A stretch of 63,073 nt of DNA, the filler included, from Kipferlia bialata (lineage: Eukaryota): NCBI GenBank assembly GCA_003568945.1. It is 7 parts of 6 records of this genome, joined end to end, with 100 filler letters (N's around TTAATTAATTAA, not from the genome) between each part and the next. Parts side by side here need not be neighbours in the genome. Positions count along the whole stretch, not along the records: positions 27,135 to 41,776 come from BDIP01000794.1; 6 more parts are not named here. One strand, given 5' to 3'. The notes beneath the pieces are model-generated. The model was not told the DNA's origin. It ran no database searches and was given only the letters and a program-made list of their open reading frames with translations. Shown here piece after piece: positions 214-55,882 of this stretch. Every line of letters begins with the position of its first letter. Position 1 is the stretch's first letter. A program made the translations under genes and the position numbers.

Positions 214-3200
214 CCTGCCCTAGATCCACCCTTGAGTGCAGGGCCAGACTGGATATGGCCCTCCTCAGCAGAGCATGGGCCTGCACAAGGGAGGTCTGGG
301 GGTGAGTCACATATGTGCATATTATGTATATTGTATATGAATCATTGCATGTGTGAACAACACATAGGGTATGGTCCTGGACAAGAGAGGTCTGGGGGTG
401 AGTCACAAATGTACACATTATATTATGCATATTGTATATGAATCTTTGCATGTGTGAACAACACATAGGGTATGGTACTGGACAATAGAGGTCTGGCGGT
501 GAGTGTGGTAACAATGAGGTTGTTTCAGGAGTAGTAATGGTACCCGTACCCTCCTCTGCTGCGGTGTCCCCGTAGTCTCCATGGGCACACACACATTGCA
601 GGTGCCATGGGGCCTGGGGTTGGTGACATGCTACACAATATACAAAATAAATATATATATACAGTCTATGTTATACACTACAACGAGCATATACCATCTA
701 CGCTACCTATACCTGATCCCCTCCTCCCACCCATGTGCATCATGTACCTGTGTATACTATACATATACATAATGGACTATCCAACATGTGTATACATCTA
801 TACCTAATCCCCTCCTCCAACCCATGTGCATCATGCCCCTGTATATACTACACATACAGTATATAGATATCAGTGTATATACTTTACTCACCTGATCCCC
901 TCCTCCATCCCATGTGCATCATGCCCCTGTGTGTAGTGTGTGGTGTCATCATTGCAGGACAGCCGCCTCATGTGGGTGTCAACACTGGTGGAGAGGTCAA
1001 CAAGAGTGGAGAGGGAACCCTGAGATAAGAGAAATACATTGAAAGAGAAAACGAAATGAGAGGGAGAGAGAGTAGTACCTGAGACAGGGCTGTGACAGAG
1101 AGTGGTCTGCCCAGATATGTACACAGGACCCTCAATACATGCAGACACAGCCATGCTGCAAGGTCAGTCTCAACCCCTGAGTGGGCACCTGGAGGGTGAG
1201 GACAGAACTCAATGCATCAGGAGTGACAATGGGTATACACGTATATATACACAAGGACTATACTACTGACACACCTTGACTGAACCAGTCCCCTGCCTCT
1301 GCCCCCTCCTTAGGCAGTGCCATTGCTAAGGGTGTAGCCAGGCCAGGCATCCATATGCCAGCTGTGCCCATGCCTGACACACCCCCTGTGACAGGGTGGG
1401 AGGGTGCTAAGGGGGACATACCCCGCTCCCTCTCCCCCTCTCTACCCCCTGGTGTAGATACAGCGGCAGAGGGCACTGGGGCCAGGGGTGATATCTGGAT
1501 CACACTCAGTAGGGGCAGGACGGCATCGACTAGGTGGGAGGCATAGCGACGCCTGGGGTGAATACCGCGAGAAGATCATATATCATCCAAAGATACCCAA
1601 AGGGACACTAATGCACAACCATACCTGTAGTGCATGACCCTGGGGTATAGCACCTCCAGCTTGTGACACAGACCCCTAGTGCTGGACGGGGCACCTAGGC
1701 GGTATGAGGCTACGTACTGGGGGTAAGATGCCACCAAAGAAACGATTTCTTATACAGGCCTGAATTCTACAAATATTGTATTGTTGCATACACTCACCTG
1801 ATACTCGTCTAGCTGCATCAATCACAACACGAAATGAATTCAACAAATACAGCTCTTGGTACAATACACCCACCTGATACTCGTCTAGCTGACTCTGGGC
1901 AACCAGTAGTCTCTCTCGCCTGGCAGTGAGTGAGAGTGCAGGGAGTGTATACTATATACACTGGACTACGTGGAATATCCCCCACCTCTCTGCGTTCTGG
2001 GTCTTGATCTCCTCTGTATCCTTGGTCAGTGTCTCAAGCCTCCTCTTCAGGTGTGCTATCCTCTGCCTCTGGGCCTCCTTCTTGGCCTCTCTCTGTCTTT
2101 CTCTCTCCCTCTCTGCCTCTGCCTCTGTCTCTGCATCAGTCAGGCCCTGGTTACCATGCGAGGCATACCTGGGGGTGGGATGTATGTATATGAATAATTT
2201 ATCGGAATACATATACGCGCCACTAATTGATCCCAACAGATGATACATTACCTTGCTGCTATCTGCTGGTTCAGCTTGAACAGAAGGGCGTCATTGCGAC
2301 GGTTGGTGTGTCTGGTGGTAAATGTATATAGTTGGGCACTGCAGTACTCAAACCAATGAGAGACCTCATTGCATGACAACTCCACATCCAATATATACAG
2401 TATATGTGTATACCATGAAATACATACCTCAGCACCCTTGCCAGTTCGGTCTGTCTCTCCCATCTCTGGTGGCCCATCCTAATGTGAGAAGGGGAGCTAC
2501 CCAATAAAAGCACCATTCCATCAACTACTTCGGCAACTGATATATACAAATATGTTAACTCTCTCACCTCCCCTCCTGCAGCACCACCCTGGGAGTCTCT
2601 GCCCTGCCAGACACAGACACCCTGTGACTAACAGAGGCTGAGGGGGCACACTCGACAGGAAGGTATCCACCACCGGAGGGGGGGTACACAGTGCAGCTGG
2701 GGTCAGGAAAGAATTATTGGGAGATAGTATATCTTTACAGAAAGAGAATCGAACATGGCCTACCTGATGTCCGCTAGCACCTTATAAACTATATAATGAG
2801 AGTCTAACAGCTTCGGATACCTGATGTCTGCCAGCACCTCAGTGATGCTGCCAATCATAGAAGGGTCATCTAGATGGGGCCCAGACACAGCTATGGCGGC
2901 ATGCCCTAGGACATAGGGCAGGGAGGCAGCCACGGACCTGGCCCCAGTGTGCATGTCATACTCGTAGCATGATAGCCTACCCACCAGTGCTAGCAGTGCC
3001 ACAGCAGCATCGGAGGGGGAGACAGAGAGTAGACTGGTGACTAGGTGTCTGGAGTAGGGGATGCCAGAGGCAGTGGCCCTGGCAGGGTGGGTGTGCACAG
3101 AGACAGTGTCCCTGAATATGGCCTCGGGGTCAGTAGGTGGTATGGTAGTAGACACCCTCAACAGACTATATAGAGCAAAGCAGAAGAATATGTCTCTACC

Positions 3201-5988
3201 TTAGTCACATGGTCCCTTGCCATTGGCTCTGACAGGGTGGACAGGGCATGGGATATATATATATATATATAGTATTTACTATATATATATATACATATGA
3301 TATATGCTATCCTCTACCTTTGTGACATGGTCCCTTGCCATTGGGTCTGACAGGGTGGACAGGGCATGGGATATATATATATATAGTATATTGTATATAT
3401 ATATCTATATATACATATGATATGTGCTGTCCCCTACCTTTGTGACATGGTCCTGTGTCATTGGGTCTGACAGGGTGGACAGGGCATGGGATATGGCACC
3501 CCTCAGCATCAGACTGTACCTATCCACAAGGGCAGAGCGGCGGTACCTGGGGGTAGGGAAACAGAGGGGGGGGGGGTATATATTCACATCAACAGATATA
3601 CATATACTAATATGTACCGATACACACTGGCAGACTGGCGGTACCTGGGGATTAAGGGGATGGAGACTGAGAATAGGCTAAAGATCACAAAGACCTATAA
3701 TTAAATGATATGTGTGAGTAGTATATACCTAAACTCCTGCTGTGTCTCAAGGCAGTATGCGTGCATGGCGCCTATGACATCTGCCGGTGACACCCCGCTC
3801 TCCACCCTGCACTCTATACACAGTGCACCCTCAGCATCCACCTTGCACCCTGCATCCAGGGTAGTATTGGAGTGGAGGTAGGGGGAGAGGGGGGAGAGGG
3901 GGGAGGAGAGGAGAGAGGCCACGACGACACACAGGGCAAAGCGGTAGGAGTGGAGGGTGGCCTCATAGGATGAGGGGGCAGAGGCAGAGGCAGAGGCAGA
4001 AGGGGTCGAGGCACCCTCTGTGACACTGGGGGTGGTGTCAGTCTCAATGTCAGACTGAGGACGGACATCACCCCCTGCGCCTGCCTCACCCTCTCCTTCA
4101 CTGGAAGGGCTGGGAACGGTGGTAGAGCTGCTACTTGTCACACTATCCTCAGTCACCCTGTCACCATCTGTCACTGATGGTGTATGTTCCCTCGTCTCCA
4201 CACTGGTCTCAAGGGTTAGAGTATACCAACTGGAGGTGAGAATGGGATATATATCAGACCATAGAGCGAATCCAGTGTAATAACCATCTCATACCTATTG
4301 TTGTCACTGCACACACACAGAGTAGGCTTCGACCGAGAGTGTTCCTTCTCTCCCAGCCTCTGTCCCTCTCTCCCACCCTCTGCATTCCCTGCCCTTCCCT
4401 CAGTGGCATGTGTTGAGTTGAGGGTGTGTAGCAAGGAGGCAAACTGAGTGAGTCCCCCTTCCTCAATCACAGCAGGGGCAGACACATACAGCCTCTTGGG
4501 GCACCCCCCCTCCCCCCTGCCCACCAGCTGTTGCAGCACCCTCTGTAGTCTGTGCATCAAGTCAGCACCTGACTGGGGCAGAGTTAATGGGTCTCTATAT
4601 AGAGTGGGGGCAGGGGATGGGTTGGGGGAGAGCAGCTGGGACACAGCGGATAGATACACCCTCTGCTGCCCCACACTCCACTCACTCTCTGTGCCAGGGG
4701 GTGTGGTGCCCATGCCATGGTTAGACAGGGTGGAGAGGCGATGGGACTCTCGCTCTGCTGCTGCCAACACAGTGGACTGGGAGAAGACAGATCCCGCCAG
4801 CACACCTGGGGTGAGTATAAATAAACATAAATGTAAATGGAGCAAGGTAATACGCATCCCACTAAACATACCATTCCAGTAGACGTTAAATGGCACAATG
4901 AAACAGTCACAGATCATGAAAGGATATGATATACATACACCCACCTGTGAACAGTGACACAGCCTCAGCACATGACTCCAGGGGGGTGGTGAAGGTGATG
5001 CTGGGGTAAGAAGGCAACAACACAAGGGATACCTTTCAAATATATACTGTATTACCTCACCACTGGTCCCCCTATCCCAGCATGTGCACTGGGTGGTGGG
5101 GCCTGACACACGGCATCAGTGCCACCACCCTTGCCACCCTCTCCCCCTGCCTCTTTCTCTCCCTCTGCCTCCTTACTGCACACACTAGTGCTAGAGGGTG
5201 CAGGGAATGACACACTGCTATGGTACCCAGTGGCATATGTGGAGTACAGGGAGGAGGCACTGCGGACGATGCCCTCCGAGGTGCGTCTGAAGACACGGCG
5301 CATCCTGGGGGTGGGGGAGGGTTAATCGAGTGAAACGTATTGTACTCTCACTCTCCCCTTCTATTTCTCTTTGTCTTTGGAAATGTATACTACTATCTGA
5401 TACCTGTTCTGCCTTGTGACGTGGCTGACCTCTGTGTGCATGAGAGCACTCAACAGCAGAGGCACAAGCATCATGTCGGAGGGGGTCAGGCTGGGGTTAC
5501 TGGAATCGTCACCAATATACACTACTACAACACTCATACACTGCACCCTATGTACATTGACAGCGCAAAGGGTGAACTGTATATACACTACTTGCATATA
5601 CTATAGTATGATATATGACACATACTCACCCACTGCACCCCATGTACATTGACACTGCCACCGTGTCCAGTGATGGATCCACACTGAAGGACACGGGGAT
5701 GGGACTGTCGGTGTGGGGGGTGCCCACTGGATATATGTCCTCCTGACCAAAGGCATTCTGCAGCACCTGGGGGACCTTGGGGTTAGACAGTAATCCAAAT
5801 GAGTATGCATATGTATATACAATATCAATGTGTAAGAGGTACTCTGCAGCACCTGGGGGACCTGGGGTTACATACAGACCAATGGGTGTATTGGACAAAT
5901 GCTGAAGACTGCCTCAAAGAGAGTCACAGAATGAGTGTGGGATAGAGACTCTTATAACCACTCAGGTATTGCTGACAGACTGAGATAC

Positions 5989-6026
<38 letters not shown>

Positions 6027-6433
6027 GAGGGGGGGGACACAAAAANNNNNNNNNNNNNNNNNNNNNNNNNNNNNNNNNNNNNNNNNNNNTTAATTAATTA
6101 ANNNNNNNNNNNNNNNNNNNNNNNNNNNNNNNNNNNNNNNNNNNNAGAGAGGGGGGGTGGGGGGGGGGGGGGGGGGGGGGGGGGGGAAGGATACTATACT
6201 AACCTGACTTTGGCTGCAGCCACTGGTACTCATAGCCCCCTGTTGCATGGGTAGGGCAGATGTAGGTGTCAGGTTCCAGTCCAAAGCTGAGTGTCAGAGA
6301 TATATCACGCGACTAGTCAGGGAGGCAGTGCCTCCCGGAGGCACTCGAGAGAGAGACCCACATACATCTGTGCACACACAGAACCTGGAAATACAAATCC
6401 TGGTAACATAATATCATGCTGTCAGAAAACCAT
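214..6433 (-). CDS. Large multi-exon hypothetical protein with a C-terminal coiled coil; weak UVRAG/Atg14-like resemblance; spans the 6046-6145 gap; 3' end probably beyond the window start
   Basis: ATG|GT at 6433-6430, then exons splice in frame (MVLCVHRSLDWNLTPTSALPMQQ...). Later exons with CTCACCCCCAG-type acceptors encode RYRRSALVDRYSLMLRGAISHAL, RQRIAHLKRRLETLTKDTEEIK, RERLLVAQSQLDEYQ, DLAAWLCLHVLRVLCTYLGRPL and AHALLRRAISSLAL. Not every junction was checked. Confidence 0.6.
6046..6145. other. Assembly gap with artificial TTAATTAATTAA linker (same at 12280-12379, 27035-27134, 41777-41876, 56517-56616, 61762-61861)
   Basis: N run + ttaattaattaa + N run, 100 nt each; flanks are mostly poly-G/poly-C or microsatellite. 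Confidence 0.97.
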
Positions 6434-33200: not shown

Positions 33201-34166
33201 ACTAATAGACAAGAGACTATTTTTGACACCACACTTTGGACTATATATCCCTCCCTCACCTCTCCCAGCAGTCCCGCAGGACAGAGTATCCAGCTAGGGG
33301 CATGGTGCCTCCATAGCACCTGGGGTAAGGGGAGACAGTCTCTCTCTCTCTCTGTATACACATATATATACATTTACATATATACATGTATATGCATACC
33401 TGTCCAGCTGAATGGACCACTCAATTGTACCCCTGGTGTGGTACTCCCGGATATACTGGGGGTGAGCGGACAAATGACACTCAAAGATTAGTAATTAATA
33501 ATACTAATATGGGTACTGTATAAATATACACACACAGTATAACCACGTGTGTATGAAGACACGTGTAAGATCACCAAAATGAACATGGCACAAATACAAT
33601 ACACATAAATGAGTATCAATGGGACTGTCCTACCAATGCCAGTAGTCAGCGTATACCTCTAACACAATAGCAACCCTAAAAAGGTATCACACACACTCAC
33701 CATGGGAACGCCGTTTTGTCTTCGGTCATCTGCATATGTCTTCATCCTCTTGAACGTATCCTACCATTAGAAGAAGCCTAGTATTCACGGGTTGAGGGAT
33801 CACCATACCGAGCTAGACTAATAGAATGCATATACAGGTAGTAAATCCACCCTGAACAGGGCCATATCCATACTTGTATATATATATATCCATATTCATA
33901 TTAGCGTATATATATATATATATACATCCCCACCCTGAACAGGGCCATGTTTGTATATATATATGTACTACAATGTATACATATATGCATATCCTACAGC
34001 TCCCCCCACCCTGAACAGGGCCACATATATATGGAAATACACACATATATACATATATATATATATATTTATATATATCCACCCACCCTGAACAGGGCCA
34101 TGCTCAGCTCTCCGTTGTTGCACCTGGATGCAGCGATGGCACAGTTAATGAGGGCCTCGAGAATGC
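27268..34166 (-). CDS. Large multi-exon protein: helical TPR-like N-terminal half, acidic disordered linker, C-terminal leucine-rich repeats; both ends lost in gaps
   Basis: In-frame splicing traced from ~30258 (WWYHTLRY) through LKTFIDLDV, the acidic exon ending at 28771, and LRR-like exons (LSNVESLSMVDC, MTHLRIDRC, LTTLDLAGSRL, VKDLVLRGC, RLDISQWE). Upstream exons such as GMFGEAAAAYMKL and YDEARGYF are TPR-like. Confidence 0.55.
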
Positions 34167-35489: not shown

Positions 35490-38176
35490 CTACTCCTCCC
35501 CCACCACACTCTCTGCCCCCTGTCCTATCTGTCTGGCAAGGGCTATGCACTCCTGGGCCTTCACCCTGGGGTTAAATATTATACCATATTATTGTTATAT
35601 AGTATGTAGTGTGGTATAGTATACTACGGAGGGCTCTGCACTCCTGGGCCTTGGGATAGGTGTGTAGAAATGTATGAAAGTGTATCACGATACAGTCCCT
35701 GACCAGCCTTGGGATCATGCAGTATAGTACAGTATATATACCATACTATTGTGCAATACTGCTGTACATGTATTAAACATACAATACTCCCTACCTCTCC
35801 GCCAGCTGTGGCATCTTGTACATGGTGGCCACTGCCCTGGTCATGGCCAGCTGCAGTCTGGGGTTAGGGTTTATATAGTATAAATATATATAGTGTATAT
35901 ATATAGTGTGTGTGTGAGAGAGGGACAGAGATAGGTCAATGCCAAGATCATGGCCAGCTGCAGTCTGGAGTGAGTGCACAGAATATATGTATATCTATGT
36001 ATATGCTTGCACATCTATGTACCTGATCTTGGCTGCCCTGACCAGACCCTCAAGTCTCTATACATATGTACATACATCCATTTATACACATTATCATATA
36101 TATACAAGTACTTGATACCTGATCTTGGCTGCCCTGACCAGTCCCTCGATGCTATATATACTGAATATATATAAATACACATATACACAAGATCCTATAT
36201 ATCCATTACTACACACTCATGTACCTGATCTTGGCTGCCCTGACCAGTCCCTCGATGCTCTGGCCCCTGGGGGTTAGATATACTTCAGATATATACACAT
36301 AAATCATATCTCCTATACGCACTGCACTGTACATATTACTGCTTCTAGATACCTTGCCATGTCCATAAGTGAGTGCATCTGACCACAATATTGTATTCCA
36401 TATATATATATATGCATATACAACATATATATCTATCTATCTATCTATACATATACACTGTACCTAGCCATGTCCATGAGTGAGTGCATCTGGTCAGACC
36501 ATACAAGCCCCCAAATACATTACATATTTATGTATATATATCTATATACATCTATATATATCTATATCTATATATGTATACATACTGTACCTAGCCATGT
36601 CCATGAGTGAGTGCATCTGGTCAGACCGGGCAGCACACTCTGGGGGTGAGATGCAACTATATATATGTGTACTATATATGTGTGTGTAGACATTTACACA
36701 CACATAAAGTGAATAGGAACATACCATTGAGCATGTCTGTGTCGATACTACTGTCTGATCCCAGCTGCTCTGCTGCCAGTACCTCCATGCTATAAATATA
36801 TGTATCTATATACATATACATATATATATATATATAACATACCATTCAGCATGTCGGTATCGATACTTGTGTCACTGCCCAGCTGCTCTGCCAGTCCCTC
36901 CAGGGTATATATATATATATATATATATACTGTATGCACGTACCATTGAGCATATCAGTGTCGATACTAGTGTCTGATCCAAGCTGCTCTGCCAGTCCCT
37001 CCAGAGTGTACTCAGGTCCATCAAGGGGGACGGTAGGGAGACAGTGAGCGGGGACTAGGGTGAGTATACAATATCAACATATATCAGACTCAGCAAATGT
37101 ATTAGATGCCCGTACCCCTGTCAGTGCCCTTGGCCACTGTTGCCAGCATGCCTCTCTCCCTCTCTCTGCCTCTCTCTCCCCCATCCTGTGATCCACTCTC
37201 TCTCTCTGCCTGGCTGGGGGTCTCCACACAGTCGGCCTCTCTCTCCCTCTCTGTCTCCTGGCATCAGCACATATGAGTTCTGAATACATTGGCCAGTAAT
37301 TACTGTAATATGTATAAAGAGAATAGATATAGTATTTGCGTATCTCAGTCATACCTGTGTCTGTGGCATGGTGGGTGGTATAGAATGGAATATCCACCAC
37401 AATGGACATATAGAGTACCAATATATGGGTATATACATATGTATACTATATACACATATGTCTATGCATACCTGTGTCTGTGGCACTGTGGGTGGTATGT
37501 AACTGTGCCCCTCAGGTACACGGGGGGTGGAACTGAGGGTGAGACAGGTATAGGTACAATTGCAACATATATACGGTGTATGGAGCTAGGGTAGAGCCCA
37601 GTAGTGCCACTATGGACACATATGGTTCTATACATGCGTCATACATACCTGATCTGTGGCTGCCTTCTGATGTTCCTGGCTGTGCTGGGGGTGGACACCC
37701 TGGAGGGGACAGGGCGCTGGTGTAAGAGACATATTATAAGCGTATAAGATTAGATAGAGAGAGAGAGAGAGAGGTTGACACCCTGGAGGGGACAGGGCGC
37801 TGGAATATTAGTATATATATAATACATATTGTATACTCGCTCTATATGTTACAGAGAGAGAGAGGGAGAGAGAGAGAGAGGTGGACACCCTGGAGGGGAC
37901 ATGGCGCTGGGTATGAGAGATAAGACATATGTATCAATAGAGCTATATATATATACAATATCTATACAAGAAATACTTAATATTGACATTGTACTACCTT
38001 AGGTATGACCACTGGGGCACGGCGTGCAACACCCTGGGGGTCAGATGGCATATGGCACTCAGCACATTTACAAACATATACATATATACTGTAATAAAAT
38101 ATTATACCTGCTGCCTGATGGCCCCCATTGATGCCACCCTCACGGGATGTATATACATATACAATCCCCCCCCCCC

Positions 38177-38207
<31 letters not shown>

Positions 38208-38975
38208 CCATATTCAATATAGTATCTATACCTTCTGCCTGATGGCCCCCATCGATGCCACCCTCATCGGCTGTCTGGTGCTGACAGGGGTCTGGCGCAC
38301 AGGCATCTAAGGTGAGTATACATATGGGTTACATATAGATAGAGACCCACCCTGACAGGTGTCTCACACACAAATATGAGAATCAGTGAATCAATGTATA
38401 TATACATATATACATTTATATATATGTATAGAGAGAGAGAGAGAGAGAGAGAGACATGCCTACCTTGACAGGGGTACGGACAGGTGCAGGGGCATATAGA
38501 TGTATTACATATATACTATACAATGTATAGTATATACATATATTGAGAGAGACCCACCTTGACTGGTGTACGGACAGGTGCAGGTGCATATAGAGGTCGT
38601 ACATATATTATATACCAAGTATATGTATGTATATAGAGATAAATAGTATGTATAACCCACCTTGACTGGTGTACGGACAGGTGCAGGGGCACGTCTTACA
38701 ACCTGGGGGTGAGATATACAAACAACAATAGGTGCACACATAAACACGTAACAATGCATATGTTAATCTGGGGCATACAATATGACTAGTATTCATATGT
38801 ACTATATATGAATAGAGGTAACTGACCTTAGGCACTGGTCTAGGGGCTGTGTATACACTGTATATAATGTATAAACATCTACACATAGGTACAACATATA
38901 TTGGTTTCATAATATATAATACATTCATGAACTACATAACTGACCTTAGGCACTGGCCTTGGGGCTGTGATCATA

Positions 38976-39015
<40 letters not shown>

Positions 39016-41718
39016 AATACAATATTACTACATATATATATATATATATAACTGACCTTGGGTACTGGCCTTGGGGCTGTGACCTTGGGTGGGGCCTGGG
39101 GGTGAGACGCTGGCGCAAACACAATGACAGAGACTACAACACACACACATATAAATATAACACTATTACTTTGGGTGGTTTTGGGGCCTGGGGGTGAGAC
39201 ACTATATGCACATAAGTACAACACTATCAGTATCAAAAGGGAGTGTGGTATTATACATACTCCTACCTTCACAGTTGGTGCCTTGTGGACCACCTGGGCA
39301 CAGGGTACATTCATACAAATATATGTATAACTACTTACTACTAACTATGTATAATTACATTCATATATATATGCATTCATATATATATATACTAATTCAT
39401 ATATGAATATTTACCTTCACAGCCGGTGCCTTGTGGACCACCTTCCTGGGCACAGGGGGAGTGACAACAGGCCTCCTCATCTGATGGGTGGGAGAGGGAA
39501 TACTATACTATATAGAGATGATAGATAAGCTTCTCATCCAGTGGGTAAGAGAGTATATGCATCCACTGACACAGTCAAAGATGATGCATGAATCAAGAAA
39601 GAGATTAAGATAGAGAGAGAGAGAGGGAACCAGAGAGAGAGAGAGAGAGAGAGAGAGACATGTACGTACTGGGACTATCAGGACAGGGCGGGGCATGGCA
39701 GGGACCTGATGGTGAGGGGAGCTCATGCATACAGTTATTATCAATGTATACACACACATATATGTATATAGGAGAGATCATGCATAGTGAAAGAGTACTC
39801 ACCGCCGAAGGTGTCCTGGCAGGGGTGGGCAGGGTGAGGGTGGGTCTGGTGGGGGTCCTGGGGTAAGCTGATATGCATAAACACCTATACATATATATAG
39901 TGAGAGAGAGGGAGAGAGAGAGTGAGGGTGGGTCTGGTGGGGGTCCTGGGGTTAGCTGATACGTATACACATCCATAAATATAATATTGAGAGAGAGAGA
40001 GAGAGAGAGCGAGAGTGGGTCTGGTGGGGGTCCTGGAGGTTAGCTGTAATACATAGAGATATACAGAGAGAGAGAGGAAGAAGTGGGAGAGAACAGTGTG
40101 GAGTGAGGGTAGGTCTGGGGGGAATATCAATACATATAGAGATGGAATGAATATATGTAGAGACAAAGGGAGAGAGAGATCACCTCACTGCAGGTATGTC
40201 TGGCTTTGCTCTCTTTTTGGCCTATATAATGGTACATGTACTATAATTACACATTACATATAGATTGTACTATTATTGTATTATTTATATATATATATAG
40301 ATTGTACTATTATTATACATTATAAATATATATGATACCTCACTGCTGGCCTCACTGGCACTGCCCTCTTGGGTATGACAGGGGCACGGCGGACAGGGAC
40401 AGGGACCTTGGGGTTAGTGCATGTAGATGTATATATATATATAGAGAGAGAGAGAGATAGAGGTGTACATTAATAGTTTGGTATAAATATATATCTCCAT
40501 AGTTGTCCATACCGGCCTTGGTCTGTGCGGGGTGGGTGCAGGGGATGCCATCCTGGCAATCTCACTCTCTCTCGCCTGGGTGTGAGTATATATATACAAA
40601 GAAGTATAATCAATACAAGTAGCACAAGATTATATATTACAATATGGCTTGCAACCCACATATACATGTACATAATACTCTTTCTCATAGGTGTGAGTAC
40701 TACATACATATACACACTCACAGTGCTATGTACTCTATATATAGGCAGTATCATGTATATACCTTTGCCTTCTCCTGGTGTGCCTCAGGAGTAAGGTCTC
40801 TCTCTACCTCCACCTGGGGGTCAGCGGGAATGTATGTATAATACTACATACCAATATAGATTGAAGCGCTTTGTGTCATATATAACTATAGTATCATATG
40901 TACATAAAGTACAGTATGTATATAGTAGTATACATATAAACACACCTTCTCCGGAGTGTCTGCCTCTGCCACTGTGCCTGAGGACTCACTGCTGGCCTGG
41001 GGGTTAGAGACAAGGAAATTAGTAAATATATATATATATTCTCTCAGTAAATGTATATAGAGGGAGGCTAGTAGACTGACTGCTGGCCTAGGGGTTAGGC
41101 ATCAATATACATATATATATATATATATACAGATATTAGGGGTATAGGGTATGAGGTAGAGAACACTCACCTCAGCCACTGTCCTGTTGGTATCGTGCTG
41201 GTCACTCTCAGTCTCTCCCTCTCCCTCTGCCTCTGCCTCTGGCTCAGCATCAGCCTGGAATGTGAGAACACACTGATATATATACATACACTCACATATA
41301 TATGTATATATGTACAGGGCACTATGTATATATGCTTACGCCACCTGAGATATGACCCCCCTCTGTGTCTGGGACAGTGACACAACAATGTGCAATACAT
41401 GTATATAGGTATATATATATAATTACTATATACATCCTAATACCTGAGATATAACACCCCTCTGGGTCTGGGACAGTGATCTGACAATATCTGTGCAATA
41501 TCTATACACACATATATCATCAGTATACATATATGTACCTGGGATATAACACCCCTCTGTGTCTGGGACAGTGACCTGACAACGGGCTGGGAGATGAGAG
41601 GGAGAGCAGAAGAGAGATAAAGATACTATAATGCCAGTATATAAACATATATATATAGAGAGAGAGAGAGAGAAGAGGAGGTGTGGGGGGGTTCTATGCA
41701 TACATACTTCCGATGAAT
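35490..41718 (-). CDS. Microexon-rich hypothetical protein: Pro/Arg/Lys-rich disordered region plus helical C-terminus; 5' end in gap
   Basis: About 20 short exons, many 30-70 nt (APAPVRTPVK, TAPRPVPK, VVHKAPAVK). The last exons splice in frame to ...DMLNECAARSDQMHSLMDMARGQSIEGLVRAAKIRLQLAMTRAVATMYKMPQLAERVKAQECIALARQIGQGAESVVGEE*. Confidence 0.65.
36722..37007 (-). repeat. Type example of intronic exon-end echo repeats: true exon end 36944-37007, echoes 36843-36906 and ~36724-36790
   Basis: Three copies of a (T)LEGLAEQLGSDTSIDTDMLN-like coding segment plus G|GT, separated by (TA)n. Confidence 0.95.
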
Positions 41719-42291
41719 CTGTGTGAGGGTGTGGGGTATAGTGCATACATACACACAACATATACTATGATATACTNNNNNNNNNNNNNNNNNNNNNNNN
41801 NNNNNNNNNNNNNNNNNNNNTTAATTAATTAANNNNNNNNNNNNNNNNNNNNNNNNNNNNNNNNNNNNNNNNNNNNTTCTCTTTTTTTTATTACCCCCCC
41901 CCCCCCCCCCCCCCCCCCCACCTCTTCAATCTCCGTTCAACACACTATCTATCACATTGTCTCTCTCCTTCAACAACTGGACATGCTTATCAACTGTCAT
42001 CTACCTCTTTCCTCCACTCCCACCCGTTCTGACTCCATATGTAGGATAAGACAGTATCCCCCCCCCCCTTCCTCTCTCTCTCCACAGCCGAGTAGATCGA
42101 CTATTCTCCTGTGTGCACCCCACTCAATGTGCCTCTCTCTCTCTCTCTTCCTATATATATTTATATATATGTATTCTCCATATGTCTCTGACTCCAGCTC
42201 TGCCCTCTTTCCTACTATCCTATGTGCACCCCACACTCTGTACAACTCTCTCCCTCTCTCTATATATATACATGATGTATCTGACATCCAG

Positions 42292-45200
42292 ATATGCCCC
42301 ACGTCACCTTCTCCTATGTTCACCCCACCCCCTGTACCTCTGTGTGTATAGGGGGTATGTTCAACCAGTGGGAGCCTGAGAAGATGACACCGACAGAGGC
42401 AGGGTGGACACTCAGTGTGGAGTTGGAAGAAGGTAATGCACTATAACTAATACTCATTACACATTTTAAACATACAGAGAGAGAGAGAGAGTGGACACTG
42501 AGTATGCAGTTGCCAGAAGGTATGGAAGTACCCTGAGTGGCTATAGGTAAGTATATGTGTAGGTCTCTCTCTTATAGCCAGGCCTCCACCCCTACAAGTA
42601 CCATGTGGATGGGGAGTGGGTGCATGACCCGACAATGCCATCATACACAGACACAGAGGTATAGTACACGTATTGGCGTCTTCTAGGTGTCTGTAACTCT
42701 AACACAACAATGTCAGTATTTCAGTCTAATACTCATTCAGGGTCCTATCAACAACTACGTGAGAGTGCTGCCCGACTCCCCCCCTCTTGACCTCACCCCT
42801 GTCCCCCTCCCACCCCTGGATGACACCCTTCCATATGGGTATGAAGAGGATGGGGTATTGACCCACAGGGTAAAGAGACACGGGTATGTATATGTCTATA
42901 TATATATATATATATATGCATACCTCTGGATGACACCCTTCCATATGTGTATGAAGATGGGGTATTAGTACACAGGGTAAAGGGACACGGGTACGTATAT
43001 GTCAATATATATATATATATTTATATTTATATTTATACATGCATACCCCTGGATGACACCCTTCCATATATGTATGGGGGGGACGGGGTGCTAGTGCACA
43101 GAGAGAGAGGACATGGGTATGAATATGCAAATATTGCTGTACAATTGTAATGACACACTTGCCTATGTATGGGGTGTTGGTGCAAAGGGTGAAGGGACAT
43201 GGGTACGTATATATGTATATACATTCACTGGCAGTGTTTAATAGGAGTATCTTGAATACATATGTGTATGGGGAGGATGGGGTATAGTGCACTGAGACAA
43301 TAGTATGGATGCTCAATGAATATATATGTGTCTATTCGGTTGAGCATGCTCCATTCATGTCTCTTCTTACACCAGCTTCCAGTTCAGTGGTGACCGTGAC
43401 TACCAGACACACATATACATATATATATGTATGCGTGTGTGTTAACACATATATAGCATCACTCTTTATACATTGAATGACATGTGTCCTTACATTTTAG
43501 CTTCCAGTTCAGTGGTGACCGTGATTACCAGACACTCAACGAGGGATACGTCATGCCTTACATACAGAGGAGGTGAGTATACTATACCTATATGTAAGAA
43601 TATGTATGGTTTATACACATCATACATAGGTGGGTCGTGAATTCAGTAAGTGTATTAATTACATATTGTATATTATACATGAATATATATTTATATTGTA
43701 TTCTCATAGTGGGTGACTATTTGGTACTGTGAACTTGAATTCTCACCCCAGGATGGCTGAGATGTACCAAGTGGTGCCTCTTTGTTTCCCAGGTGAGACA
43801 GTGTAATGATACACGCTTGCTAGAGAGCGTGCTCATACTGATTCCTCTTGCCTATCACCACAACCAGGTTTTCTCTCTACTTGAATAGGAAACTATTGTT
43901 GTGTTACTATACTATGTATTCTCCAATCCCCTGTATGCTCCCAAGATCATATCAACTGATAGAGTAGATGGCAGAGCGCCTCTCTCTATGTAGAATATCC
44001 TCGCATATTAATAGATATTGAGTATCATCACATTCATTCAATACGTGTATAAGGATACTAACCCATCAGGTGATACGATGTCCACCCTCCGCCCTGCCTA
44101 TGTGAGTGAGGGTCTGATGGGACACAGGGGGAGGGTGCTGGTGCTGATACCGGGGTCAGGTATGAGACTATATCATTCATTGTATATATATATACATACA
44201 TGTATATCGGTAAATGTAGATGTATATGTGAGTGAAAGTGTCATTGGGCACAGGGACAGGGTGCTGGTACTGATACCTGGGTCAAGTAAGAGGTTATGAT
44301 TAATATATATTGATAGATACATGAGAAAATAGACAATTAGTAAATATATGGATTCAGGGGGGGGGGTGCTGGTGCTGATTCCTGGCTCAGCTGGGGTAAC
44401 TATAGTATATACTATATACCAACATGTAATTTATCATATTTGTGTGAATTCAACATTTATAGTCGATGTGTCTGTATATACTCACTCACTCAGGCCTTGT
44501 TGAGGACCTTGGTCAGTTGGGAAACTACTATATATAGAATTGTACATATATACAAATACTTAAGAGACACTATGTTACATATGTCTCACTCACTCCCAGG
44601 CCTTGTCGAGGCTGGTATCTGGGGCAGGGCACTCTGCTGCAACGACAGCCTCCAGACAGGTATATGTAAACGATAACTAGTATGTATACACATATACGTG
44701 TTTGTTTTGGCCGCGACAGCTCCAGACAGGTATATGTAAACATATGTATGTATATCAACTACTTTCCTTTTTAGATATACATGTACAGGGTGCCCATCGT
44801 GAATACTACACATGTAAACACACATATGTATTTGTGTGTCTCTCTATATATATCCCTATCTCTATTGATGGGTATCCTGACGCTAGGCTCCATGCTGCCC
44901 TATCTGGCCCAGGCTGAGAGGGAGGGCTACAAGGTGGTGGTCATGAACCCAAACAGGAGGTATGGGTGTATATATTCTATACACACCTGACTAGGAATGC
45001 TTGTCCATAGAGATAGAGTATCAGAGACATTATTAGTGTTCCAAACAGTATCTGGTATTCATACCCAGTTACCGTTATGACCTTGACCACCCTGGGTGTG
45101 TATACATATCAAATAGTATACATGTATTATATTCACACATATGTATGTATTCACACCCAGGCACCGGTATGACCTTGACCATACTCTGGCTGTGTGGAGA

Positions 45201-45919
45201 CACCTGGTACTGGGGAGTGCGGCATCAGAGGTGTGTATATGTATCATTAATATATATACATATATATACATACATAGTACTAGCACCTGGTACTAGGGAG
45301 TGCGGCATCGGAGGTATGTACATATATATTGATACTACAGTTTATACAGAATGTTATCCCTATGCATCAATATACGTGTACATTAGTACTACCCTTACCT
45401 ATCCCTCTTATCCCAGATCTACGTGGTTGCATCATTATGGACATATATATATATACTAGTTATCCCTCTTACCCCTCAGATCTACGTTGTTGCCCATAGC
45501 TATGGAGGCATTGCAGTGGCACACATACTCAGTGAGACAGTTAAGGAGAGGGAAGGAGACGCCCCTGCAGAGAGCGGCATGTGTGTGAACCCCCGCCTCA
45601 CTGCCGTTGCTCTGACAGACTCGGTACACGGTGGGTCCAGGTACCTACACGGTGCTGCTCTAGAGTGGCTGGGGGAGGTTGCCGTGCAGTACAGAACATC
45701 ACCGAACCCTGTGGATACCCTCGAGTGTGCACTGGGGGATAGCATGGAAGGGTGTGAGGTAGGCTTTCAAAAATATAAGAATAGAATATAGAATAATTAT
45801 TCTAGAATTTCTATTTTACCTGACACTGTCAGGTCAGGAGTGCTGGGGTTATGGACCATGCATCTACCAATGAGGCGGCAAGGGAGGCCATATTCAACAG
45901 GTTCAGGCAGAAGTGGTGA
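42292..45919 (+). CDS. Fusion of an AMPK-beta-type glycogen-binding CBM48 domain to an Arb2/FAM172 alpha/beta-hydrolase-fold domain
   Basis: CBM48: MPHVTFSY...CIGGMFNQW...WTLSVELEEGLHPYKYHVDGEWVHDPTMP...GPINNYVRV. Arb2/FAM172: VLVLIPGSGLVEAGIWGRALCCNDSLQTGSMLPYL...GYKVVVMNPN, YVVAHSYGG, AVALTDSVH, VRSAGVMDH. Confidence 0.85.
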
Positions 45920-46277: not shown

Positions 46278-47225
46278 ATGGAGCCTGCCCTAGTGCCTGA
46301 TGTGCGTGTGACTGCCGTTCCTGTCGACCCCTTTACATCAAGGGATGGATACACGTCAACGTACCTCGGAAACAACCAGACCCTGTTGGTGGTGCGTTAC
46401 AATTACACGTCAAACGCAGCGAGAATCCTTACCAAACATGAGGATGGAACAGTATCGACCACAGCCATTGAGGGACCCTCTCTACCTCATGAACTTGGGA
46501 TGAATGTGTATATGCCACTGCTAGCGGTGATTCTGCGCTCCTTTTATCTCCTCGGAAAAATTGGCAGCGAGGTATATGGTCTCCAAGTCAGATCGGAACC
46601 AAGCCCTGGTGGTGGTGACGATAGTCTTGCTGAGTGTTTCTGGATACTCTCTCTTGAGACTATGGTGTGGAGACAAGAGCCGTTTCCAGCAGAGATCCGG
46701 CAGCGCCATTCCGTACACTCTATCTATGCTGCCGGTGTGATATCGGAGTCTGTCTGGATGTGTGTATGTGAACACAGTGGATGCTCTGCCCCTCTCGTTT
46801 ACACGCCTGAAACTCAAGAAGTTGGCAGAGTTTCAGTGCTAGAAGAGTTCCTATCGAGAGGAGGTAGTATTGAGGTAATTTGCTCTGATAGCACCACTTG
46901 GTACTTTTGGGGGGAGGCTCGATCCAGTATGTATTCATATTCCCTCGGTAGAGATGAAGTGAACAGGGTGTCAGTGAGCAAGCCTCTAAGTGGCATCCCA
47001 CAACCACTGGGATCATACTTGTTGAATCATTCATGGGGTCTCGTGTTGTACTCTTCCCTGTCCGGATGTCACAGAAACATAACCACTGATGATATGGGTG
47101 ACACGTTATGGCGTGTGGCAGAGTGTCATGAGATAGGCAACAACCCTGTTATCGTAAAGGTGTCACAAATAGGAGGAGGGGACTCTCTAGTGTACGTGCT
47201 AGAAATTGTTGATGTTGAGTGTTAG
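46278..47225 (+). CDS. Intronless beta-propeller-like protein (315 aa)
   Basis: Clean ORF; STYLGNNQTL, GKIGSEVY, FWILSLETMVWR, LVYTPET; paralog of 47891-48862. Confidence 0.75.
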   Translation: MEPALVPDVRVTAVPVDPFTSRDGYTSTYLGNNQTLLVVRYNYTSNAARILTKHEDGTVSTTAIEGPSLPHELGMNVYMPLLAVILRSFYLLGKIGSEVYGLQVRSEPSPGGGDDSLAECFWILSLETMVWRQEPFPAEIRQRHSVHSIYAAGVISESVWMCVCEHSGCSAPLVYTPETQEVGRVSVLEEFLSRGGSIEVICSDSTTWYFWGEARSSMYSYSLGRDEVNRVSVSKPLSGIPQPLGSYLLNHSWGLVLYSSLSGCHRNITTDDMGDTLWRVAECHEIGNNPVIVKVSQIGGGDSLVYVLEIVDVEC

Positions 47226-48969: not shown

Positions 48970-49200
48970 TGGGCCCCACAACCATTGGGCTCTTATGTGT
49001 TGGATCACATATGGGACAACCTCGTGTTGTACTTTCTCCTACCCGGATGTCACAGAGACATATCCACTGAAATAGGTGTCAGGTTCTCGCGTGATACAGA
49101 GTGTCATGTCACGACAGGTAACAACACTATGATCGTAAATGTTGTGCATACGTGGGGGGAGACTCAATTGTACTTGATACATTCTTGACGTTGAGCATAG
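48970..49200 (+). pseudogene. 3' fragment of a third paralog of 46278-47225
   Basis: PQPLGSYVLDHIW..LVLY..LPGCHRDIST..ECH..GNN aligns with PQPLGSYLLNHSW.LVLY..LSGCHRNITT..ECH.GNN. Confidence 0.8.
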
Positions 49201-53589: not shown

Positions 53590-55882
53590 CTACACGATTG
53601 CAGCCACGCTCTTCTTCCGCGTAGCGATGTGGTGCATGAGTAGGTAGAGCCAGGGCATAGCGCAGTTCCACTCTAGGAGTGCATTAGAGACAAGGGTCAT
53701 GAGCCATGGGGACTCAGAGACTAGGCCATCTGTGGTGGTGGTGGTGGGCCTCAGACCAGTGAAGGCAAGGCAGACCTGAAGATGAGCACGTTACTTCTTA
53801 AGAATTAGATTCACAACATAGTTGAATGACCCAGCCTGTATACTCATCACAGATAATGACACTGATACTGATACTGAGTCAGTGTGCCACCCTCCACCTA
53901 CCTCAAACACAGACTCAACTCCGGTACCAATGGCAAAGACGGACAGGACCTGGTGTCAAAAGTTCAGTGAGACAAAAGTGGGAGTATATGGAACAGTCAG
54001 GGTATCTGAACAATGATGGATAAGTATATATACATGTCGATATAGAGAGAGAGAGTTCAACGGACAGAGACAGATACCTCTGTGGGTGTTGTGTGTCTGC
54101 TGCCGAGTAGCACTAGGTAACCAACTGCAGCACTCAGAAACATGGCCCATCTGGGGGTAAGAGAATGGCACAGGATGAAAGTGCTATTGATATACGGCGG
54201 TAGAAATACAGAGAATGACATGCATTGCGAGACTGTCGAAATATACACTGACCATACCTCGAGTCCGACATCACTCTGCTGATGGTTGTAACATGGTCAG
54301 TCATGGGGTAGGCCTAGGGTAAGAAGGCCAAGACATAGGTGAAGAGGGTTCTGTGACAGAACTTCTGGCATTCAGTGTGAGTATTGTATACATGTGACAT
54401 ATATAGTGTATGTCTCACCTTGTCGAGCAGGCCAGGCACAGTCTGCACCGTGATGAAGAGCACACAGTAGAAGGCTCTACCCAGGTCCCTGTTACGCTTG
54501 TCACACTTCTCACACACATTGCTAGTCAGAGTGACACCCTCTACCTCAGCCTCAGCCTGGGGCTCAGGTCTCACTGCCAGTAGGTCAGGTACCTCAACAC
54601 AGGGTGTCTCTGGTTCTAGTACCACACCAACATGGGGGGCACATGTCGGGTCTGGGACAGGTGCAACAGGTACTATGCTTGAAGGTCTAGATGGGCTAGA
54701 GAGTGTAGAGTTGGTGAGGGAGGGGAATGTCTTGCGGAGCATGAGCATGACAAAGGAGGGGTGCACAACCCCTGAGAGTGAGACAGTGGCTGTCACTGAC
54801 AGAATGTAGTTGTGATTGGGCATGTACTATACTCTGTTATGGCCCAAAACTAATGGTTATGTATTTACACCGGTATTATGAGTGCGTGTGCTAATATATA
54901 CCTGTGAGAGATGAGAGCCAGAGTAGCAGCCACTTGGCACTGATCTCAGAGTCCACGGTCCTGATAAGTCAGAGGATCGTGATTACACATCAAAGAGATA
55001 GTGTGTGGTGTATTGAAGTGATGTTGTAACATGATCATTCACCTTGTTCCCTTCCAGCAGTACCAGATACCGTAGTCCACTGCGTAGTAGATCACAAGGC
55101 CCACTGCACCCAGGGCAAGGGCATGGTACTCACGCTAAGGGTGGGAATAGACACATATATATATAAATACACTGATGTATGTATTATGTTTGAGATGTGT
55201 AGACAGAGTGGAAAGCCCAACTGCACCCAGCGCAAGGGCATGGTACTCACGCTGGAGGTCAGTGCATAGTCTATACTATAGACAGTCATTCCACATGTAT
55301 ATATGGTTAGTATCTATATGGAGATAGTTCTACTGCACCCAGGACAAGGGCATGGTACTCACGCTTAGTATTGGGATAGACACTCACGTATAGCTAGATA
55401 TATATAGAGAGAGTATGTTTAGATAGTGGTATTACCCACTGCACCCAGGGCAAGTGCGTGGTACTCACGCTGGGGGGAAGTAGAACAAAGTATTCACTCA
55501 TATTACATGAGAGAATATATTATATGAGTGTACGATGGTATCGGACAGCTAGCAACCAGTGGTATCAGTACCTTGTAGGCCAGGAGTGCCACCCACACAC
55601 AGAGAGCAGAGATGTCAGCTGAAGGTTAGAATAACAAAGTGTATGTTAGAGAGTTACAAGTTATCACACTTGTAACTCTCTAACATACACTTGTCAAGTG
55701 TGTATACCAGAAATTCTGGTCCAGAATGTATACCTATACATGTATACCAATACACAGGGCAGTGATGTCAGCTGGGATCAGAGGAACTAAACATATCATG
55801 AGAGACTTACCAATGTGTATGGTTGATGTATACCTATGATGTAGGTCCCTGTGAACTGTCTGCACACCACATCAGCAGACAT
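53590..55882 (-). CDS. Polytopic membrane protein resembling an uncharacterised prokaryotic family, ~9 exons
   Basis: In-frame splice: MSADVVCRQFTGTYII...LLAYK|REYHALALGAVGLVIYYAVDYGIWYCWKGTR|TVDSEISAKWLLLWLSSLTG|VVHPSF...|AYPMTDHVTTISRVMSDSR|WAMFLSAAVGYLVLL|VLSVFAIGTGVESVFE|VCLAFTGLRP...TLVSNALLEWNCAMPWLYLL...*. Confidence 0.75.
55637..55692. repeat. Perfect 25-bp inverted repeat with 6-nt loop inside an intron
   Basis: AAGTGTATGTTAGAGAGTTACAAGT-tatcac-ACTTGTAACTCTCTAACATACACTT. Confidence 0.95.

Follow-up and report, generated by a model that had tools for sequence, protein, structure and literature searches.

Mutually exclusive exons that arose by exon duplication are tandem coding copies which differ mostly by silent changes and each possess their own acceptor and donor. 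In human GC-rich minisatellites, repeat units are transferred between alleles and the arrays grow at one end from the homologue; these units are wholly non-coding. Minisatellites that span a splice site are described for a few human loci, i.e. F7 intron 7 (37-bp unit), CBS intron 13, LMNB2 (100-bp unit), PDGF intron 4 (81-bp unit) and 6-16 (accessible text of PMC1557585). Their first unit lies over the exon-intron boundary and the donor is reiterated within the intron, with 5-25 repeats per array; the F7 unit contains 4 exon bases and identical donor sites, of which the most upstream alone is used (PMC1557585, same text). In the intron gain described in the accessible part of PMC2891723 (Rogers type), a short tandem duplication leaves exon-like sequence in an intron, a new intron arises at the duplicated AG/GY and coding function is kept by the copy downstream. 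Daphnia-type new introns, mentioned there as products of the repair of staggered breaks, have an AT-rich insert between direct repeats of exon sequence.

Here we describe copies of exon ends, termed echoes, in the introns of a 63,073-nt stretch of the genome of Kipferlia bialata (the window). In anatomy they are splice-site-spanning tandem repeats: like the F7 type, the units lie over the exon boundary and reiterate the splice site (57 anchored echoes) and are arranged head to tail. Unlike the F7 type, which has at least five closely similar repeats, there are 1-3 anchored echoes per side; they occur in a quarter of the modelled introns, at donors and acceptors, with diverged spacers and a bias towards silent changes. 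In contrast to the Rogers type, an existing splice site was duplicated, no intron was gained and the copy remains within the old intron; a downstream copy that sits at a usable acceptor and becomes coding was not found. The repeat includes a pre-existing splice site, whereas Daphnia-type events create introns. Inserted pieces of the kind expected for introners or other mobile inserts do not recur elsewhere in the window: its self-comparison gave one distant repeat pair, in which the spacers are not involved. Each echo has one splice site and not both: a credible acceptor in frame was found for none of the 35 donor echoes, whereas every copy of a mutually exclusive exon would carry both sites in matching phase. 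False duplication of allelic contigs would leave no more than two versions at a site, both of them intact alleles, which is not what is seen. Compared with GC-rich minisatellites, what moves between alleles would be the end of a coding exon, and selection would therefore leave a readable trace.

A literature search, in a library with few subscription papers, gave no description of the echo pattern in Kipferlia or of a silent bias among intronic copies of exon ends; the stem "duplicat" is absent from the accessible text of PMC5874029, and that of PMC6679479 is likewise without the pattern.

Results

An exon end and its two echoes in gene B

The features of the locus are as follows.

35490..41586, minus strand: host gene B, modelled with 22 exons and 447 codons as far as the stop, 5' end outside the contig; Pro/Arg-rich
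36944..37054, minus strand: coding exon with echoed 3' end, 111 nt, phase 1-1; stop-free AG/GT model
36910..36943, minus strand: first donor and spacer, GT followed by a 24-nt TA run
36843..36909, minus strand: echo 1, 22 codons and one further nt; 10 codons changed, 10/10 silent; GT next
36792..36842, minus strand: second donor and TA-rich spacer
36725..36791, minus strand: echo 2, in-frame 3-nt insertion, four amino-acid changes plus silent changes; GT next
36640..36724, minus strand: third donor and 85-nt core intron, which carries the intron's only consensus acceptor
36591..36639, minus strand: next coding exon, 49 nt, with two donor echoes of its own (36500-36464 and 36381-36353)

The frame of gene B was set by a hand-built, stop-free model of 22 exons with AG/GT at all internal junctions. 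Echoes are present in 13 of its 21 introns; echo 1 and echo 2 sit in intron 18. A protein search with a gene B exon returned 322 candidates, none at E 0.01, two exons gave no match to Pfam, and no family was assigned to the gene.

The first-pass annotation had described echo 1 as a copy of the last 21 codons of the exon that differs by silent changes only. Indeed, exon end (37007-36944) and echo (36906-36843), both of 64 nt and on the minus strand, encode an identical peptide of 21 residues with 11 bases different in 9 codons; a TCA/AGT serine switch is among the silent changes, and the match even runs one codon further 5' (Tyr, silent). For a neutral echo and a fully constrained exon, the probability that 9/9 changed codons are silent is ~ 1.6e-4, or ~ 0.009 if the 56 echoes counted below are allowed for. 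The two donors are 101 nt apart as annotated, so that read-through to the echo donor would shift the frame, and it also meets a stop. Tandem Repeats Finder gave periods of 101 and 118 at the locus, i.e. tandem units head to tail. For echo 2 (36791-36725), the annotated in-frame indel was found as a 3-nt insertion, but four residues differ as well (T>S, L>M, G>V and T>S), which had gone unmentioned. A mutually exclusive use of echo 1 through an upstream CATACAG, also raised before as maybe due to chance, is not supported: the motif is in phase, but it would leave an intron of 14 nt, the shortest of 128 modelled introns being 52 nt, and as an acceptor it scores -2.3 compared to 4.3 at the 5th percentile of real acceptors. 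The earlier conclusion that the echo had been under protein-level selection at some time is supported by a three-way comparison, in which exon and echo 2 are equal at 7 of the 11 differing bases, so that these changes are echo 1's own (7/7 silent), and by a silent bias across 15 multi-echo families. Taken as a whole, the earlier interpretation, which offered no mechanism, is partly supported, and the gene B echoes point to past coding on another haplotype and not to present coding at the locus.

Extent and layout of the echoes

The window consists of separate contigs joined by six spacers of 100 nt (an all-frame stop word of 12 nt between two runs of 44 N; e.g. 6046-6145), and neighbours are not necessarily adjacent in the genome. 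From its sequence, 13 gene pieces with a total of 142 exons and 129 introns were modelled by hand. The modelling began with genes in which repeats are visible; it omitted three doubtful exons of one gene and gave one intron a dummy end. Each exon was aligned to its flanking introns. This revealed 57 echoes in 33 of the 129 introns, a share that applies to the modelled part only, since several genes of the window lie outside the models. Altogether there were 67 exon-versus-intron matches, of which the 57 are anchored at the splice site; among the 10 unanchored ones, nine have scores of 24-28, close to what chance gives (1.45% of 5792 unrelated pairs), and the tenth is a piece from inside a donor echo. 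Without exception, donor-side echoes (exon 3' end plus donor, 35/35) lie downstream of their exon and acceptor-side echoes (acceptor plus exon start, 22/22) upstream; reversed polarity was seen in 0/67. One acceptor match that overlaps a donor echo was removed from later counts, leaving 56 echoes in 37 families.

The units are 57-155 nt long (median 97) with 14-71 exon bases, and the longest exact word common to exon end and echo is 8-44 nt (median 19). GT is retained in 33/35 donor echoes and AG in 19/21 acceptor echoes. Introns with echoes have a median length of 237 nt versus 85 nt without, and 22 of the 24 introns of at least 200 nt hold echoes; after subtraction of the units, the remaining core has a median of 85.5 nt, equal to the echo-free introns (85 nt). 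Polarity, units of ~ 100 nt and the constant core thus give the layout of a tandem duplication across the splice site. Twelve of 19 neighbouring echoes have a common breakpoint within 2 nt. Gaps in echoes are multiples of 3 in 2/11 cases overall; of three gaps inspected where gene B and the CBM48 gene have long echoes, two are 3 nt. Echo-bearing introns are twice as TATA-rich. A TA-like word stands at the start of 7/35 echoes versus 3% background, a weak signal of a motif picked after looking. Echoes were absent from four gene pieces with 37 introns (phosphatase, band 7-like and two others, named from reading their translations) and from the 4 introns of a fifth. Further arrays and genes are:

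42884..43500, plus strand: largest array, in a 617-nt intron of the CBM48-Arb2 gene; 3 anchored donor echoes, 1 further internal fragment and 1 acceptor echo
55135..55571, minus strand: acceptor-side array, in which the real exon is preceded by acceptor plus exon start in three copies, with 5 silent changes and 1 amino-acid change
215..5775, minus strand: gene A, echoes in 7/18 introns (10 echoes); weaker silent bias, 0.47

A protein search with an exon of the gene on the plus strand at 42292-45758 gave a single identical protein, P0002, a hypothetical protein of K. bialata for which the source lists CBM48 and Arb2 domains; in the gene, an AMPK-type glycogen-binding domain (PF16561) is joined to an Arb2 domain (PF22749), and no further relative was found within the length range searched. 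Three echoes of this gene (42922-43202, plus strand) have Val and two have Gly versus Thr and Arg in the resident exon, so ancestral residues may be recorded there. Upstream of its first modelled exon, beyond the counted introns, lie two more diverged acceptor-side echoes (42088-42250, plus strand) which are stop-free in the exon's frame over ~ 16 codons. Elsewhere, three donor echoes of 14-16 nt (33851-34023, minus strand) are identical to the exon end, with a different intron start behind each. An inverted repeat of ~ 28 nt per arm was seen by eye within an intron at 55640-55700, and the only distant repeat of the window (46997-47219 and 48975-49195, plus strand; 72% over 229 nt) lies beside intron-poor open frames.

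Selection on the exon part of the echoes

Differences were counted at 0-fold and 4-fold sites. For a neutral copy compared with a constrained exon, the 0-fold/4-fold ratio is expected to be at least 0.5, and for two neutral copies ~ 1.0. With all echoes pooled, in rows that are not independent of each other, the ratio was 0.31 (84/1152 versus 80/341). Single echoes gave 0.51 (37/387 versus 19/101), the value for a neutral copy of a constrained exon, and therefore serve as an internal control. Families with at least two echoes gave 0.17 (15/382 versus 27/119; family bootstrap 0.08-0.33). The difference between single and multi-echo families is significant (P=0.004), the division having been made after the data were seen. 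Echoes compared with each other gave 0.20 (18/349 versus 28/109; 0.11-0.32), or 0.195 with the gene B locus excluded, and by family the direction was 13 for, 1 against and 1 tie. In 750 runs of a neutral simulation with the same aligner, ratios of 0.54-0.57 (minimum 0.19) were obtained for exon and echo and 1.03-1.08 (minimum 0.44) for echo and echo; the observed 0.17 and 0.20 both lie under every one of them. The selection signal in the multi-echo arrays is statistically solid, and ratios so far below neutral show that the array copies were mostly under protein-level selection during their separate history.

In the 15 multi-echo families, changes private to an echo fall on 21/779 0-fold and 31/241 4-fold sites. 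Those private to the nearest echo amount to 4/349 versus 11/109, where 2 of the 4 are the silent serine switch, those private to the exon to 9/349 versus 9/109 and those private to farther echoes to 14/349 versus 15/109; the 4-fold branch of the exon is similar to that of the nearest echo, as for two alleles. The nearest echo is less decayed in 8 families and more in 1, with 6 ties (P=0.039). Farther echoes (rank 2 and up) are silent-biased too (0.27). The bias persists if the junction is trimmed by 8 nt (0.28). An artefact of the mutation spectrum was ruled out, 0-fold being below 4-fold differences for each of the four reference bases. Acceptor-side echoes alone (0.47) and gene A alone do not beat the floor of 0.5. 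Along the echoes, the ratio is 0.19 near the splice site and 0.47 near the junction, a gradient that fits the capture of alleles discussed below but may be an edge effect of the alignment and is given no weight.

Splice sites of the echoes

Among the donor echoes, which alone were scored for this, 0/35 has an in-frame acceptor that reaches the 5th percentile of real ones. Extension of the exon to the echo site would keep the frame in 9/35 donor and 5/21 acceptor echoes. Real sites score higher than echo sites by 20:9 (donor) and 14:6 (acceptor). The annotated P0002, a gene prediction, matches by eye the model that uses first donors and last acceptors; gene models of the species used transcriptome hints (accessible text of PMC5874029). 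Judged by these sites, present use of echoes as exons is unlikely. A decayed donor echo at 40184-40221 (minus strand) has an AG 38 nt upstream that is in phase and stop-free, with an acceptor score of only -8.7. A piece of 18 nt (39170-39187, minus strand) with consensus acceptor and GT was modelled as a microexon; it resembles an acceptor echo of the next exon with a gained donor, which may be a route of exon birth.

Discussion

The echo pattern is real and general in the window; its mechanism is what we infer from the sequence. We take the echoes for non-coding tandem copies, each of an exon end and its splice site, and we somewhat favour the view that in multi-echo introns the additional copies stem from alleles that once worked, acquired by unequal recombination between diverged homologous chromosomes. 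A local duplication of ~ 100 nt over the splice site would first produce one echo, tolerated if the first donor or last acceptor remains in use, and neutral decay would follow. The echo on one chromosome could then pair with the real exon end on the homologue, and a crossover or conversion in the mispaired region would add a unit whose exon part had been coding up to then, with allelic, mostly silent differences from the resident exon. The new unit would be placed beside the exon and the older echoes shifted farther off; the reciprocal product would be a collapsed or purged array. Repeated rounds would let the intron grow in steps of ~ 100 nt, and echo 1 of the gene B locus would have been captured recently, from a haplotype that had diverged deeply. 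Growth by mispairing of existing units predicts breakpoints common to sibling echoes, as seen in 12/19, and capture predicts that the silent pattern is purest in the echo nearest to the exon, as seen, and that exon (9/109) and nearest echo (11/109) have silent branches of similar length.

Such capture requires haplotypes ~ 20-23% apart at 4-fold sites (27/119). In yeast and mammals, recombination is inefficient where homology is confined to 30-70 nt with mismatches. K. bialata is reported as diploid from k-mer peaks (PMC5874029, accessible text), and very high silent diversity is reported, in the text available of PMC11334263, for another protist, Paramecium. Look-ups of P0002 and of a ribosomal protein gave one member and one contig each, with no second haplotype of either on record; a metagenome scan gave 0 matches to a motif common to exon and echo 1, and 42 pattern matches to P0002 with 0 confirmed. 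Spacers mismatch on average at 11-12 of 20 positions, versus ~ 14 for unrelated introns, which exceeds the 4-fold divergence; the latter is independent of spacer divergence (0.26, 0.22, 0.24), and in one example 16/20 mismatches follow an echo with 0/11 codons changed. Plain crossovers are therefore insufficient without fast slippage or conversion. An intron-spacer clock was discarded as uninformative, since slippage saturates the spacers. Farther echoes are more silent-biased than the simplest version of capture predicts; conversion from working alleles would help there and with the spacers.

The donors could instead have been diverged gene copies and not ordinary alleles, i.e. paralogues, or homoeologues after hybridisation, that were later lost, or whole exons could have been duplicated, been mutually exclusive for long and then truncated. 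Silent-biased differences are expected here too, and 4-fold divergence of up to 7/11 at the gene B locus is more between-species-like than within-species-like. Nevertheless, this origin appears unlikely: the CBM48-Arb2 exon has no paralogue among 485 candidates, and truncated whole exons would yield both polarities and unrelated breakpoints, in contrast to the single polarity and shared breakpoints seen. Hybrid origin and deep allelic divergence are indistinguishable from the present data.

Duplications on the same chromosome that decay neutrally, with the gene B locus as a lucky extreme and the silent bias reflecting constraint on the real exon only, would fit the single echoes, the pooled acceptor echoes and gene A. 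With or without conversion on the same chromosome, they predict ~ 1.0 between echoes and at least 0.5 between exon and echo; the observed 0.20 and 0.17 contradict this for the multi-echo arrays of the window, and as a general account we find it quite improbable. Gene conversion on the same chromosome and second-order selection via pop-out were each rejected by argument.

It is more doubtful still that the echoes are frame-preserving spare exon ends, present in a quarter of the introns, which are still translated via an unrecognised swap, be it by non-canonical splicing, template switching at the RNA level or frequent pop-out of DNA between repeats, so that both copies are under protein-level selection. 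The silent bias among copies, the retained GT and AG and the two 3-nt gaps of the three inspected would agree with this. Against it stand the lack of adequate in-frame acceptors in donor echoes, the lower scores of echo sites, the small share of frame-keeping extensions and of gaps that are multiples of 3, and the neutral appearance of single echoes; moreover, pop-out frequent enough for selection would be expected to wipe out a silent divergence of 20% as well.

That allelic contig ends were joined in tandem through TA repeats is likewise unlikely, with a very slight chance on the sequence: alleles of a diploid would show silent differences, the assembly is fragmented (13 N runs in the window) and the echo introns are TATA-rich, but there are 3 versions at the gene B locus and 4 or more in the largest arrays, more than two alleles can supply, some echoes have lost splice sites or frameshifts and are therefore not parts of present working alleles, the join would need a TA run in mid-exon of the other allele where just a few TA-like bases match, the exact words shared by exon end and echo are short, and no N lies inside the arrays.

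If extra copies were indeed captured from diverged alleles, one genome would be a dated archive of the population's old alleles, age-ordered along each intron. For Kipferlia, a free-living relative of Giardia, recombination between deeply diverged homologues is an open question. The arrays would then be sequence evidence for it, be it through sex, hybridisation or long-asexual diploids, and countable genome-wide from existing data. The process would account for 22 of the 24 long introns modelled. The spliceosome of the organism is reduced (87/174 proteins searched; accessible text of PMC6679479), and the echoes would provide thousands of natural tests of how such a spliceosome settles on the first donor and the last acceptor where several are present.
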